Positions 7,819 to 62,206 of a stretch of DNA of 64,000 nt are shown piece after piece. Position numbers and translations under genes: made by a program. Every line of letters begins with the position of its first letter. Positions within the stretch are counted from its first letter, which is position 1. The notes under the pieces are model-generated. The model did no database searches and had not been told where the DNA came from. It saw only the letters and a program-made list of their open reading frames with translations. Source of the stretch: Candidatus Micrarchaeota archaeon (GTDB lineage Archaea; B1Sed10-29; JAJSAI01); assembly GCA_964625085.1 (NCBI GenBank), contig CAZVAJ010000003.1, positions 953 through 64,952 on the forward strand. Direction: 5' to 3'.

Positions 7819-8076
7819 GTGATGGAAAAAATCATGATAATACAACCTTGCACAGCACACCCTGGAAAAATAAACCTACTAGGCCGTTTGAACACCACAC
7901 CAGACGGGCCTGCGCTAAGCAACCTCAAGAAGATGAAAAGAGTTTCTGATTTTAAGGAAGACATAGACCTAGGGATGGTAAGGTTCAAAAAGGAAGGGAC
8001 AAGCGTTACAGTTTTCCTAAATGGCAGGATAGTGGTAAGAGAAGCTGAAAATGAGGAACAAGCAAAAAAATACTAA
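7819..8076 (+). CDS. Small hypothetical protein (85 aa); C-terminal strand-strand segment weakly resembles a TBP-repeat S3-S4 element
   Basis: SVTVFLNGRIVVREAENEEQAKKY vs TBP [20 protein letters not shown]; weak, unverified. Confidence 0.35.
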   Translation: MMEKIMIIQPCTAHPGKINLLGRLNTTPDGPALSNLKKMKRVSDFKEDIDLGMVRFKKEGTSVTVFLNGRIVVREAENEEQAKKY

Positions 8077-35755: not shown

Positions 35756-36079
35756 ATGCCTGCTAAAAAGAAAACAACAAAGAAACCTGCACAAAAGAGA
35801 AGCAGAAAAAAGAAGATCGAGTACCGGATAGAGAACATAGTTGCTTCAGCAAGTCTGAACGTGGAACTTGACTTGTACGCAATAGCAAGAGAGGTCCCTA
35901 ATGTAGAATATGAACCAGAACAGTTTCCTGGTGCAATACTAAAACTTAAAGAGCCAAGAATAACTCTTCTGCTTTTCAAGAACGGAAAACTCATATGCGC
36001 AGGAGCTAAAAGCGAGAAACAAGTTGAAGAAGCAATACACACTGCTTACAACATGGTCAAGCACTGCATAAAAAAATAA
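35756..36079 (+). CDS. Single-repeat TATA-box-binding-protein (TBP) domain protein with basic N-terminal tail
   Basis: RIENIVASASLNVELDLYAIA...NVEYEPEQFPGAILKLKEPRITLLLFKNGKLICAGAKSEKQVEEAI closely matches one TBP repeat (RIENIVAS, EYEPEQFPG, SGK-V-GAKS); only 107 aa, stop follows one repeat; no second repeat in flanking frames. Confidence 0.75.
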   Translation: MPAKKKTTKKPAQKRSRKKKIEYRIENIVASASLNVELDLYAIAREVPNVEYEPEQFPGAILKLKEPRITLLLFKNGKLICAGAKSEKQVEEAIHTAYNMVKHCIKK

Positions 36080-36084
36080 ACCCC

Positions 36085-36786
36085 TCATTCTTCATTTTCC
36101 GGCTCTTCTTGGTCAAGTTCTCTTACATCAATCCCTGTTTCTTTAGAGAGTTGTTCCATTGTTTCTAGCACAGGCACACTCTCTTCTGGCAGCTCTTCTT
36201 CTGCTTCTTCAGGAGCCTCTTGCTGTTCTTTGCCAACTCCTTCAAGAACCGTGTCGATATTCATTAGAAGTATCAATAACTCAAGCACAAGCGTGAGCTT
36301 CAACGGATCTTTCATGTAATGCTGCGCATAATACTTCAGTATCGTGACATACCTCCTGCTTATGTACCTGCCTTTATACTCTTTTAGCAGTTCCATGAGT
36401 TCTCTTTTTAGGATTCTTGGATCTTGTACTTCTTCAGGCACCTGAATATTCTGCACGCAAAACTGTGCGATCTGGTGCAAAACTTCAACAGGCATTGATA
36501 AAACAAGGTCTGGCTCGGGAAGCTTGTACATGTTTAGGTATAGATCTTTCTCAGGAAATTTACCGAACAGATCCATTGTAAACCTTCTGATTATCATGGC
36601 CCTTGCGCTGTAATGCGTCGCGTAATAACTGTCTTCGCCTTTTTTCAACGCCTCTTCCGCAATTTTATTATTCTGCTCATAGAAGTAACCCAACGCGAAG
36701 TAGATAAGTACACGTTTATCTGGCTCGCCGTACTTGAACTTGCTCTTGAACTTTTTGAACTTGCTCAAAAGATCTGTATCCATCAC
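36085..36786 (-). CDS. Hypothetical protein with acidic C-terminal tail
   Basis: 233 aa; no recognised motif. Confidence 0.4.
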   Translation of the reverse strand: MMDTDLLSKFKKFKSKFKYGEPDKRVLIYFALGYFYEQNNKIAEEALKKGEDSYYATHYSARAMIIRRFTMDLFGKFPEKDLYLNMYKLPEPDLVLSMPVEVLHQIAQFCVQNIQVPEEVQDPRILKRELMELLKEYKGRYISRRYVTILKYYAQHYMKDPLKLTLVLELLILLMNIDTVLEGVGKEQQEAPEEAEEELPEESVPVLETMEQLSKETGIDVRELDQEEPENEE

Positions 36787-36806: not shown

Positions 36807-37635
36807 TTATAAAACCTTTTGCATGCGCTCTTCAGCTTCTGTTCTGTTAAAACCTGAAAGGGGAACAAACACCGGAAAACCTTTTCCAAAGTACTTGAAT
36901 GACTCTTCCAACTCAGTTTTCATGTAAGGGAGGATTAGGGCAAGAGCTTTTTCTAGTTCTGCAGCTTCGAAAAGCTCTTTGTCAGGATACCAATTTATTT
37001 TCTTTCCAGATGCCCATTTTTTCAGCATACTAGGCCGTTCTTTTCCGACAAGCGAAATTTCCAGCCCCCTTCTCATCACCATCCAAGCGGCAAGCAGTCC
37101 AAAATCATCCTCCGCAAGGGCCACTGCTTTTGCTCCTGCAGTCCCGTAAGGCAATCCCCCTGGCCCTTTGAATGTTTCAGAAAATAGGTATGCTTTTCCT
37201 TTGAATATTTCTATGCCCACCTGCTGTTCCGGATTCTTCAGCCTGACCTTCAGCCCTAATTCTTTCACAATCCTTTCTCCAACCAGTTCGTTAACCTGCT
37301 GTGAAGTAAGGTTAAACGTCTTATCAAGCCTTTGGGTCCTAACCGCAAAAGTTTTCCCAGGCTCACACAGCTTGACTGCTTCTTCTGCAATCTTATCAAT
37401 ATTTAGGTCCAGTTCAACTGCAGGGGAATAGGAAGATACCCCAAAAACCTTGGACAGTTTATCCAATGCTACTTTTTCATCCCCTCTAACAATTATCCTC
37501 CAGTACTTGTTACTGATCTTGTGATTTGGGAGAACCCGCTGGATGTTAGAAGCAAGAACCTTTATGAAACGCCCTCGCGTTGGCTCTGCCTTGGTATAAA
37601 TTTCTGAGTGTCTTACGAGTATAATAACACACCAT
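36807..37635 (-). pseudogene. thiI: ThiI-like tRNA-modification gene fragment (N-terminal ferredoxin-like + THUMP), 5' frameshift and degenerate PP-loop; probable pseudogene or split-gene partner
   Basis: Track ORF 36807-37466 starts at TTG; in-frame upstream 75 codons (no ATG/GTG/TTG) encode VIILVRHSEIYTK...RFIKVLASNIQRVL matching ThiI N-terminus (MKFIIKLFPEITIK...RFIKILTGNIRNVL); an ATG GTG at 37635-37630 is +1 out of frame (extra T at 37629). PP-loop position reads ALAEDDFG instead of SGGxDS; protein ends ~85 aa later. Confidence 0.5.
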
Positions 37636-37717
37636 CCCCTTGTATCACGTGTACATTCTAATTGTACTATTACTACGTATAAAAATGATTATAAAGGAAT
37701 AAAACGGAGTTCATACG

Positions 37718-51033: not shown

Positions 51034-51162
51034 AAGCCTCGGGTGGGATTCGAACCCACGACCTGCTGCTCTCTCGATCCTCTTTAAGGGAAGAGGATAG
51101 AAGGAGAAACCGTAAGGTGTCTCCTCTTACGAGGCAGCCGCACTGCCACTGTGCTACCGAGG
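51034..51162 (-). tRNA. tRNA-Thr (anticodon CGU) with ~57-nt intron
   Basis: Minus strand: acceptor GCCTCGG/CCGAGGC, U73, D arm GCAC-AGTGGCA-GTGC, anticodon stem GCTGC...GCAGC with loop CTCGTA-[intron]-A, T arm GTGGG-TTCGAAT-CCCAC. Confidence 0.7.
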
Positions 51163-51177
51163 CAATCTGGCATATGA

Positions 51178-58513: not shown

Positions 58514-59596
58514 TTATTTTATCATAGAATATGCGGACGTTTGTTTCAAGCCATGGCCTGTGATTACAAGCGCTATTTTCTCATCACTTCTGCCGATGTC
58601 TTTTTCAAGAGCTGCAAGAGCTGCGGCGCTCGCAGGCTCTGCAAAGATCCCTTCTCCTGCAAGCTGTTTCATTGCCTTTAATATCTCATTGTCTGACACC
58701 GAAGAAAAAAAACCTCCTGATTCTTTGACAGCATCCAGTGCAGTAAGACCGTTAAAAGGCTGCTTCACGGCTATAGAACTCGCTATTGTGTGCCCCCTTT
58801 TAGGCCTCTCAAAATGCCTGACTTGGTGTTCCCATGCGCGGGTTATCGGATCAAATCCTTCTGCCTGAACACCTATCATCTCAGGAAGAACTTTTGATGC
58901 TCCAGCCTGCTTCAGTTCTTTGAATCCTTTCCATATGGCTGTGATCAACCCCCCTGTTCCCACAGGCACAATAACCTTGTCTGGAACACCTATGTCCTCA
59001 AAAAGCTCAAAAGCAATTGTTTTTTCCCCTTCAATATAATATGGATTAACGCCAGTCATGGCAATGTACGTGCGATTCCGTCTTTTCCATACCTCTGAAA
59101 AGCACTCAAAAAACGTTCCCGGAACCTTTTTGACATTTGCTCCATAAGCGACTATCTGGGTCACTTTAGAAGGGGGAGTGTCGCTCGGAATAAAAACTTC
59201 TACACCCAGGTTCGCATACGCAGTATATGCTGACACGCTCGCGCCCATGTTCCCTGTACTTGCCACCCCTACTTTTGAATGGCCTGTGCTGAGCGCGTGA
59301 GAAAGCACTACCGCGGTCCCCCTATCCTTGAACGAACCTGTCGGATTGTCTCCTTCAAACTTGTAGTACAGGTTAGGGTATTTTCTTGTAAAGTCCCTGT
59401 TCTTCACAAGAGGTGTATCCCCTTCCTCCAGGGACAATTTCTGTTTTACGCTTGGAAGCATTTTAGAATAACGCCACACACCCCCCTCTTTTGAAGGTGT
59501 CCACTCTGTTTTTCCTTCCCATAACAGAACCGAACCACAGGAACATAAGTACTTGAACCTGCGGTATTTTTTCCCACACTCAGGACAAACAAGCAT
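58514..59596 (-). CDS. thrC: Threonine synthase-family PLP enzyme with N-terminal zinc ribbon
   Basis: PLP-Lys motif TGSFKDRG; N-terminal CPECG...CSCG. Confidence 0.8.
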   Translation of the reverse strand: MLVCPECGKKYRRFKYLCSCGSVLLWEGKTEWTPSKEGGVWRYSKMLPSVKQKLSLEEGDTPLVKNRDFTRKYPNLYYKFEGDNPTGSFKDRGTAVVLSHALSTGHSKVGVASTGNMGASVSAYTAYANLGVEVFIPSDTPPSKVTQIVAYGANVKKVPGTFFECFSEVWKRRNRTYIAMTGVNPYYIEGEKTIAFELFEDIGVPDKVIVPVGTGGLITAIWKGFKELKQAGASKVLPEMIGVQAEGFDPITRAWEHQVRHFERPKRGHTIASSIAVKQPFNGLTALDAVKESGGFFSSVSDNEILKAMKQLAGEGIFAEPASAAALAALEKDIGRSDEKIALVITGHGLKQTSAYSMIK

Positions 59597-61184: not shown

Positions 61185-61811
61185 TTACAGGTCAACCTTT
61201 TTGGCGTTATGCAGTGTTTTTTCAACTAGTTCATGCAGGTTCACTTTTGCTTCCTCTGCAACAATTCTTTCAAGCCGTGATTTAGTTGCTGGTTTTTTCG
61301 GAACTATCATACAGCATGCTGCTGGCCTTACTGAAATATCATATGTTCCTATGTCTTTTGCTATCTTGATAATGTCCTCTTTATCAAGCCCTATCAAAGG
61401 CCGTATTATGGGCTTGCTTGACGCAGAAGATTCTGTGTAAATGTTTTGAATTGTCTGTGACGCGACCTGCGCAAGATTTTCTCCGGTTATTATGAAATCA
61501 CAACCAACCCTCTCTGCCAGTGCAGAAGCAGCCCTGAACATCATCCTTCTGCACAGGACGCACTGAAACTTTCTGTCACAGTTTTTTGCAAACTCAGCAA
61601 GGTTTTGGCCGTGGGGAAGAACATACGCAGTCTTGAACCCAAGTGCCTTCATTGAGTCAAGAGCCCTTTGTTTTGTGTCTTCTCCTGCAAACGGAAAGTT
61701 ATCAAAGTATGCTGGAATCTGCTCGTACTCCCTGAGCACGTATGATGCAACCGGAGAATCTATACCTCCCGAAATCAGCGTGAGCGCTTTTAGTTTCATG
61801 ATATCATCCAA
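61185..61811 (-). CDS. thiI: ThiI-like PP-loop ATP pyrophosphatase domain protein (catalytic half of tRNA 4-thiouridine synthase) without THUMP
   Basis: PP-loop LISGGIDSPV; ITGENLAQVASQTIQN...IRPLIGLDKEDIIKIAKDIGT matches ThiI C-terminal core; Cys pairs CVLC and PAACC. Confidence 0.75.
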   Translation of the reverse strand: MDDIMKLKALTLISGGIDSPVASYVLREYEQIPAYFDNFPFAGEDTKQRALDSMKALGFKTAYVLPHGQNLAEFAKNCDRKFQCVLCRRMMFRAASALAERVGCDFIITGENLAQVASQTIQNIYTESSASSKPIIRPLIGLDKEDIIKIAKDIGTYDISVRPAACCMIVPKKPATKSRLERIVAEEAKVNLHELVEKTLHNAKKVDL

Positions 61812-62206
61812 AATAACGTGCTTTTTTCGATCATGTCCAAAAGCCTGTCCTCAGGCAAGTCAGTGTACTCTCTTTCTTTACTAACAAAGCAGGCCTTGAA
61901 GTCTCTCCAACTATCTTTTCCAGTCCAAGAGACAAAGATCGCCTCTTTATTTTTAACGCACGCTTTTGACACTGCTTTGCTAACCTGCCGTTCTCCCACA
62001 AGGCGCAGTAAGAACTCCAGTTCTTTTGTTCTGGCTATGTTCCTGCCTTGTTCGAAAGCTTTTAAAACCTCTATCACAGAATGTTTTATGTGGGTTGGGC
62101 CTCCTGTAACCCCTGGATCAACAACCTGACAGCCGGGATGAGACTCAAGCCACTCCTGTATTCCCGCATTCGTTTTCAGGGAAACCTTTTTAATCAGGAT
62201 GTCCAT
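61796..62206 (-). CDS. Hypothetical protein (136 aa)
   Basis: Complete ORF. Confidence 0.35.
   Translation of the reverse strand: MDILIKKVSLKTNAGIQEWLESHPGCQVVDPGVTGGPTHIKHSVIEVLKAFEQGRNIARTKELEFLLRLVGERQVSKAVSKACVKNKEAIFVSWTGKDSWRDFKACFVSKEREYTDLPEDRLLDMIEKSTLFWMIS

Follow-up and report, generated by a model that had tools for sequence, protein, structure and literature searches.

Known Systems and the Locus

A tRNA thiolase made up of an active and a degenerate PP-loop protein is known from eukaryotes: in the s2U34 thiolase Ctu1-Ctu2 (Ncs6-Ncs2), the catalytic PP-loop subunit is accompanied by a paralog with a degenerate PP-loop, and the partnership has been demonstrated experimentally. 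The Ctu1-Ctu2 proteins belong to another PP-loop family than the one addressed here, their target is U34, and they contain no THUMP domain. We analyzed two genes related to ThiI/TtuI which lie 24 kb apart on the minus strand of a 64,000-nucleotide stretch of DNA, referred to below as the window (Candidatus Micrarchaeota archaeon, assembly GCA_964625085.1, contig CAZVAJ010000003.1, positions 953 to 64,952). One of them (36807-37628) codes for a THUMP protein with a degenerate PP-loop domain and lacks a canonical start codon, and the other (61185-61799) codes for a stand-alone catalytic PP-loop pyrophosphatase (PPase).

The ThiI enzyme of T. maritima dimerizes through its PPase domains, and U8 is brought to the active site of each subunit by the THUMP and ferredoxin-like domains of its partner (PMC4041423, PMC9957541). 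The [4Fe-4S]-dependent TtuI proteins of M. maripaludis and P. furiosus are characterized by a motif set consisting of CxxC and a further C (PMC9825150). Burroughs and Aravind (2014; PMC4075521) remarked that THUMP had been regarded as the universal fusion partner of ThiI-like domains, and described an exception in which the fusion is with DUF814. In this ThiI+DUF814 family, a THUMP-less PPase domain with CxxC and C is fused to an alternative RNA-binding domain, so the catalytic domain is not necessarily tied to THUMP, and the family phyletically excludes THUMP-ThiI. A THUMP protein serving as a non-catalytic tRNA adaptor in trans is described for Tan1/THUMPD1 with Kre33/NAT10, which form ac4C12 in tRNA (PMC11109946). 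Lastly, the P. horikoshii protein PH1313 was presented in a 2023 review as a "ThiI-like protein" from which conserved ThiI residues are missing, with a smaller PP-loop domain and an unconfirmed activity (PMC9957541).

With the canonical ThiI/TtuI enzymes (B. anthracis 2C5S, T. maritima 4KR6, and the Fe-S TtuI of M. maripaludis), the first gene of the window shares the ferredoxin-like domain, the THUMP domain and the GGLP linker, while the second shares the PPase domain with SGGIDS, CxxC and C. Unlike the situation in these enzymes, the parts are carried by two polypeptides encoded by distant genes, the SGGxDS motif and the catalytic cysteine are absent from the THUMP polypeptide and occur only in the separate open reading frame (ORF), and the first gene adds a dead PPase-like domain. 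Several defining features of a canonical ThiI are absent, and neither gene qualifies as one. The finding is real and largely ordinary, since it consists of two known families, a local anomaly of the start codon, and an attractive two-subunit hypothesis. The whole explanation, comprising both family assignments, a heterodimer of the two proteins, and a start anomaly confined to this genome, was given a probability of about 0.5. The coordinates of all the features are listed in Table 1.

The THUMP Gene and Its Family

The minus-strand frame of the THUMP gene is uninterrupted from position 37688 to the TAA codon at 36807-36809. The first in-frame ATG, GTG or TTG is the TTG at 37466, which gives a product of 219 amino acids (aa), and the 54 codons running from GTT 37628 to this TTG code for VIILVRHSEIYTK...RFIKVLASNIQRVL. 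The PF22025 match lies mostly upstream of TTG 37466, and the original prediction was right in placing the conserved ThiI N-terminus 5' of the first usable start. The protein matches only positions 1-224 of the 373 positions of TIGR00342, with 158.4 bits, which does not reach the cutoff of 264.5. AEDDFG stands where canonical ThiI has SGGIDS in the alignment, as had been predicted, and it is followed by the early stop that had also been noted, although the distance of about 85 aa given at that time was slightly low: 96 residues, or 102 counted from the first residue of AEDDFG, lead to the C-terminus. The regions of the CxxC helix and of the dimer-interface loop are deleted from this dead domain, and there is no C-terminal catalytic cysteine (alignment); the AAWxxMxRG and PVFxPLxG motifs are retained.

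The best solved relative in terms of sequence is PH1313 (1VBK; E 7e-33). The AlphaFold2 (AF2) model of the protein (pLDDT 88) also gives 1VBK as the best Foldseek match over its full length (TMq 0.80), ahead of the ThiI proteins of B. anthracis and T. maritima. Both proteins show the same layout, in which the ferredoxin-like and THUMP domains are followed by a small PP-loop-like domain, and both have lost SGGxDS, which is replaced by LHDELS in PH1313. PH1313 comes from another lineage, the identity amounts to 27-29% in the structural alignment, and the window protein has 273 aa as against 307. The lack of a canonical start codon sets the window copy apart from the PH1313-type relatives.

When GTDB was scanned for the THUMP gene with one genome for each species, 576 relatives were found, and the best 80 loci were examined. 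The original prediction had suggested looking at the ThiI architecture of related genomes, and the short form without SGGxDS turned out to be present at 45 of these 80 loci, in Methanomassiliicoccales, other Thermoplasmata, Sysuiplasma, Woese-, Micr-, Iain-, Aenigmat- and Altiarchaeota and Nanoarchaeia, whereas Methanothrix and others carry full-length ThiI. A homology search with the THUMP protein likewise gave many relatives of 254-295 aa composed of ThiI_fer and THUMP without the ThiI PPase domain. The SGGxDS motif was present in none of the 19 short-family members aligned, which mostly show L-E-x-E-x-D at this place, and no intact short-family locus carries it. When aligned with full-length ThiI, the short-family proteins (about 260-310 aa) were found to have the CxxC helix region and the GE..Q..SQT interface loop deleted and to stop shortly after the PxFxPLxG strand, without the region of the catalytic cysteine. 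With the dead domain alone (120 aa) as the query, 99 representative clusters at 50% identity were obtained, nearly all of which contain proteins of 250-300 aa with the domain in the C-terminal position; none of these 99 clusters showed a Rosetta-stone fusion of the dead domain to an active PPase.

The fact that AEDDFG and the early stop are common to the whole family indicates that they are not signs of local decay. The short architecture with its dead PP-loop domain is ancestral and has been retained in many lineages of archaea. The degenerate PP-loop and short C-terminus, which are easily misread as gene decay, are the signature of a conserved family. It is highly probable that the THUMP gene belongs to the PH1313-type ThiI-like family and that the catalytic ORF described below belongs to a large stand-alone family of Fe-S type ThiI/TtuI proteins.

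The selection acting on the THUMP gene was assessed by comparison with a sister genome (GCA_024274695.1, contig JAJSAI010000025), where the local gene order is the same as in the window: a divergent upstream gene encoding the proteasome-activating AAA ATPase PAN, the THUMP gene, a gene of about 235 aa, and a short gene for a TATA-binding protein (TBP). The sister THUMP ortholog (P0002) has 281 aa and an ordinary ATG, and shows 68% identity with the window protein. The proportion of synonymous differences (pS) between the two genes is 0.77, i.e., saturated, while that of nonsynonymous differences (pN) is 0.157 in the 53 aligned codons 5' of TTG 37466 (pN/pS 0.20), 0.209 in the remainder of the gene (0.28), and 0.251 in the dead PPase-like domain (0.34). 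The part of the gene which is best conserved is thus the unannotated N-terminus. The combination of a saturated pS with a low pN indicates that the whole body, including the part missing from the gene calls, has been kept under purifying selection through practically the entire time since the two genomes diverged. The pN/pS of about 1 that would have characterized a fragment free of constraint was not observed in any part of this uninterrupted body of 273 codons, and the idea that the gene is a decaying pseudogene is not supported as far as AEDDFG and the early stop are concerned, which are family traits; the 5' end may nevertheless carry a very recent lesion, as considered below.

The Stand-Alone Catalytic Gene

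The second gene occupies the ORF at 61185-61811, its start being probably the ATG at 61799. The separate, intact PP-loop ORF without THUMP which had been predicted here was borne out: PF02568 (ThiI) is the only Pfam match, neither a THUMP nor a ferredoxin-like domain being detected, and the protein carries SGGIDS (61772-61755), CVLC (61562-61551, residues 80-83) and CC (61316-61311, residues 162-163). This motif set matches that of the [4Fe-4S]-dependent TtuI. The protein covers positions 174-373 of TIGR00342 with 178.2 bits, the cutoff of 264.5 not being reached, and gives 175.5 bits with NF006222 (PRK08349-like), for which the cutoff is 251, so that it has the same architecture and falls outside the curated subfamily. 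No other THUMP or ThiI-PPase ORF besides these two genes was found in the 64-kb window.

Homologs of the catalytic ORF are numerous (3355 with E < 1e-20). The best 120 were examined, and all of them are single-domain proteins of 179-261 aa in which the motifs SGGIDSP, CxxCRRMM, GExLxQVASQT, RPLIGxDK and CC..P..P(A/S)T recur. The ORF therefore belongs to an old stand-alone family as well and is not a fragment left by a recent split. The suggestion that ThiI is genuinely split therefore stood in part: the domains are complementary, constrained and found together, while a split within this genome does not fit with two families which are both old and widespread. The source names given to these homologs are "thiamine biosynthesis protein ThiI" (JGI) and, in four cases named at NCBI, "7-cyano-7-deazaguanine synthase"; the latter looks like a misannotation in view of the PF02568 scores and the presence of CxxC and C.

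A Possible Two-Subunit Enzyme

The two window genes are complementary in their domain contents, and together they hold all the parts of a canonical Fe-S TtuI. Like the subunits of canonical ThiI, the two proteins might pair by way of their PP-loop-type domains. With its ferredoxin-like and THUMP domains, the dead partner would then hold the acceptor/CCA end of the tRNA and present it to the Fe-S catalytic subunit, and together they would amount to a 4-thiouridine synthetase encoded by two genes, in which a single docking module is combined with a single active site. Pairing a docking module and dead PPase with an active-only PPase would keep exactly one complete trans-acting unit. Taken by itself, this inferred mechanism of a dead and a catalytic subunit, the most likely one, is close to an even bet, with the balance tilted slightly against it.

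The genes were found together in all three of the genomes in which this could be tested. In the sister genome, both are located on a single 45-kb contig, and the sister PPase (P0084) shows 77% identity with the window catalytic protein. In the metagenome-assembled genome (MAG) JAJRYS01, the short THUMP gene is carried by contig 4 (L006, 38% identity) and the PPase gene by contig 29 (L093, 57%). The divergence of the two proteins is congruent (68/77% and 38/57%), in what is a small sample. All five tRNA genes of the window have T at position 8.

The proposed heterodimer would share the logic of Ctu1-Ctu2, that of an active and a degenerate PP-loop paralog. It would also resemble Tan1-Kre33 in having a THUMP adaptor which acts in trans; the Tan1 system differs in its acetyltransferase chemistry, and Tan1 contains no dead copy of the catalytic domain of its partner. 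In contrast with ThiI+DUF814, the window PPase is a single-domain protein and co-occurs with a THUMP protein. No proposal of a split or two-subunit ThiI was found in the searchable literature, and one may exist elsewhere.

As a tentative generalization, many archaea (Thermoplasmatota, several DPANN lineages and the lineage of the window) might make s4U8 by means of an obligate dead/active heterodimer, in which the vestigial PP-loop domain may be the dimerization scaffold and a stand-alone [4Fe-4S] ThiI/TtuI the partner; we would not put this wider proposal at even odds. If it is correct, it would provide a function for the structure 1VBK (PH1313), which has been an orphan since 2005, and would answer the question of how the substrate is found by thousands of ThiI PPases that lack THUMP and are often misnamed QueC. 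It would also yield a second tRNA thiolase, after Ctu1-Ctu2, consisting of active and dead PP-loop paralogs.

The Missing Start Codon

The window copy of the THUMP gene lacks the family-typical in-frame start before the I-L-V-R motif. At 48 of 48 short-family loci, an in-frame ATG, GTG or TTG is present within -15 to +3 codons of the V1 position, the usual N-terminus being M-x-x-I-L-V-R. In the sister genome, the start ATG is located about 27 nt after the TTTTTATA box, as in leaderless archaeal mRNA. The window, which reads GTGTGTTATT within 37600-37670, keeps this box and an ATG (37656) at the same distance of about 27 nt, but in the wrong frame. The ATG-GTG at 37635 is in the +1 frame, as originally predicted; it is not the only ATG there, as had been stated, since that at 37656-37654 stands in the same wrong frame.

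Translation might begin at the in-frame ATA (or ATT) just 3' of the GGTG Shine-Dalgarno (SD) sequence. The ATA lies exactly 7 nt after GGTG, a spacing which is also found in four of the five GGTG-type SD genes of the window, and the product starting from it, (M)LVRHSEIY, resembles the shortest N-termini in the family, such as MIIVRHGEIF and MYLVRYGEVF. Alternatively, one base might have been gained after ATG 37635, either by a real mutation or through a sequence error: removing one base in 37632-37626 gives M-V-C-IILVRH, which is a family-typical N-terminus. The "one extra T" of the original prediction is an inference, and the other explanations fit as well. Initiation at a non-canonical or mutated start, a real recent 1-nt insertion, and a sequence error are possibilities which the data do not separate. 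The missing start is in any case a peculiarity local to this genome, and it stands apart from the mechanism proposed above.

The 219-aa product is on record in four sources (NCBI, ENA, Logan and JGI), which may not be independent assemblies. The JGI record (P0082) is the same 219-aa protein as P0001 (NCBI, Logan, ENA), with the first residue written as L. Exact-protein look-ups of both 219-aa records and of the neighbouring PAN gene returned no record, and a single metagenome scan gave one distant relative only. The public gene calls, by starting at TTG 37466, cut away most of the ferredoxin-like domain: in the AF2 model, this start would delete the strands and helices of residues 2-48, which makes it unlikely that the 219-aa annotation is the functional product.

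Alternative Explanations

Several points weigh against a partnership of the two proteins. No PP-loop-only ORF was found within ±10 kb of the short gene at any of 48 short-family loci (L002, L003, L005 and 45 GTDB loci), and the genes surrounding the stand-alone PPases differ between loci. The range of these PPases seems to exceed that of the short THUMP proteins, some of them bearing source names from Methanosarcinales, Methanoregula and Diapherotrites, so that they cannot everywhere depend on a short THUMP partner. The co-occurrence sample consists of three genomes only, and the loop lining the canonical ThiI dimer interface is deleted in the dead domain (alignment). Several homologs of ThiI are reported from Pyrococcus, among them, next to PH1313, a full-length TtuI that is active (PMC9825150, PMC9957541), and the window copy, having no canonical start codon, may not be expressed at normal levels. 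The PH1313-type protein might thus be independent of the stand-alone PPase, serving as a tRNA-binding protein, a chaperone or some other adaptor, while the PPase has other partners and the two genes belong to two paralogous systems. This picture, which we hold to be somewhat doubtful but worth serious attention, is in keeping with the absence of adjacency at the 48 loci, with the larger size and broader taxonomic range of the catalytic family, and with the lack of any demonstrated activity for PH1313 (PMC9957541); a protein of 82-93 aa with the TBP fold and a conserved Cys stands beside the catalytic family at four of the seven distinct loci examined, and ThiF, IscS/NifU or PALP genes occur near the PPase gene at some loci. 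It leaves a ThiI catalytic domain without an RNA-binding module, which needs something to pick U8, and a dead protein which retains exactly the ThiI-specific docking module and linker, and it has to accommodate the co-occurrence of the two genes in three of three testable genomes.

The explanation preferred here also has to be set against three accounts of the 5' end. The programmed +1 frameshifting soon after ATG 37635 which the original prediction had called for if the first half were to be functional is favored by geometry only, i.e., by an out-of-frame ATG, shifted by one base, which lies three codons ahead of the conserved motif. It is not conserved, since the sister and 48 of 48 relatives have an in-frame start, ATG-GTG-TGT-TAT-TAT contains no slippery or hungry-codon site as read from the sequence, and neither precedent nor rationale is known for a shift that occurs in the first four codons; this account was therefore set aside as extremely improbable. 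An error of sequencing or assembly as the source of the extra base, with ATG 37635 as the true start (M-V-C-IILVRH...), is also unlikely. Although deleting one base in 37632-37626 restores an N-terminus of family-typical length, and although the gene is otherwise undamaged and under constraint, the site contains no long homopolymer, the same truncated product comes from several sources, one of them a collection assembled independently (again with the proviso that the records may not be independent assemblies), and ATG 37635 is situated within the SD-like GGATGGTG and not downstream of such a sequence. Moreover, no frameshift was detected in about 30 genes that are in synteny with those of the sister genome, which indicates that the assembly is not indel-prone. 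This last observation, like the agreement of NCBI, ENA, Logan and JGI (subject to the same proviso) on the 219-aa call, speaks for a real lesion, in which case a copy with an intact body would have been inactivated recently by a 1-nt insertion at the 5' end or by the loss of its start codon, and would be a pseudogene at the onset of decay. Such a lesion would account for the lack of any in-frame ATG, GTG or TTG before codon 55, for the two upstream ATGs in the +1 frame, and for the contrast with the ordinary start of the sister and of 48 of 48 relatives. The 273 codons without a stop or further frameshift do not suggest decay, however, and since the N-terminal 53 codons are those best conserved (pN/pS 0.20), any inactivating lesion must be very recent; the in-frame ATA at the ideal SD spacing would also provide a route to expression. 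Recent inactivation was judged improbable as well.

Table 1. Features of the two ThiI-related genes and their immediate surroundings (positions in the window).
Feature	Position	Strand	Remarks
Conserved coding body, PH1313-type ThiI-like protein	36807..37628	-	273 aa + TAA stop
GPGGLP linker + shortened, catalytically dead PP-loop-like domain	36810..37166	-	Residues 155-273; alignment
AEDDFG replacing PP-loop SGGxDS	37098..37115	-	Aligned to SGGIDS of canonical ThiI
THUMP domain	37179..37388	-	Residues 81-150; PF02926 E 3.3e-14; AF2 pLDDT >90
N-terminal ferredoxin-like domain	37425..37625	-	Residues 2-68; PF22025 E 2.5e-13; mostly 5' of database start
TTG start of public gene calls	37464..37466	-	219 aa; loses most of ferredoxin-like domain
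GGTG SD-like core (37633-37630), then in-frame ATT (37625-37623) and ATA (37622-37620)	37620..37633	-	
In-frame open leader without ATG/GTG/TTG	37629..37688	-	
ATG in +1 frame at family-typical distance from ILVRH motif	37633..37635	-	Then GTG; stop after 29 codons
Upstream ATG, +1 frame	37654..37656	-	Stopped by TGA 37647-37645; aligns with sister start ATG
TATA-like box TTTTTATA	37678..37685	-	Common to sister genome; read from sequence
Stand-alone ThiI/TtuI catalytic PPase	61185..61799	-	204 aa; Fe-S type motifs; PF02568 E 1.5e-53
Weak Cgi121-like ORF (KEOPS subunit family)	61796..62206	-	136 aa; stop overlaps ThiI-PPase start (ATGA)

Neighbouring Genes and Other Observations

The Cgi121-like ORF overlapping the PPase gene gives 17.4 bits with PF08617 in the window, which is below the cutoff, and 30.3 bits in the case of the sister ortholog, which is above it. 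Cgi121 was considered as a conserved partner of the PPase and rejected, the overlap being confined to the window and the sister (L086 3790-4817). Just downstream of the PPase gene, three related genomes carry a gene for a pyridoxal phosphate (PLP)-dependent enzyme of 356-361 aa (PF00291) with a possible N-terminal zinc ribbon, located at 58514-59596(-) in the window, at 6411-7496 in L086, and at 6350-7420 in L093, where it is directly adjacent to the PPase gene. A ThiF-like E1 gene is also found near the PPase gene in L093, which belongs to MAG JAJRYS01. The presence of these PLP-dependent enzyme and ThiF-like E1 genes hints at a sulfur-supply context.

A small protein of 82-93 aa with a conserved N-terminal Cys (P-C-K) is encoded beside the stand-alone PPase gene in four unrelated loci (L093 5457-5705, L088 5744-6004, L092 7401-7673 and L094 5684-5965). 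Its gene overlaps that of the PPase in three of these loci and lies two genes off in the fourth, and one member of the family scores above the Pfam TBP threshold (28.9 bits). This protein may be a sulfur-relay or accessory protein. The candidate in the window (7819-8076, plus strand) is weak (profile E 0.004) and lies far from both ThiI genes.

Next to the THUMP gene, a 233-aa ORF (36085-36786) begins 20 nt downstream on the same minus strand; its product has a strongly acidic C-terminal tail and no Pfam match, and the ORF is kept in the sister (L001 10867-11580) and does not occur beside the other short-family genes. A tRNA gene of 129 nt at 51035-51163(-), presumably containing an intron, was detected by Rfam with 57 bits and missed by ARAGORN. 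Canonical archaeal TBP has two repeats and about 180 aa; the TBP gene near the THUMP cluster (35756-36079, plus strand) codes for 107 aa with a single PF00352 repeat (E 3e-29), and the sister TBP (L001 11570-11914), which has 114 aa, is likewise a single-repeat protein.

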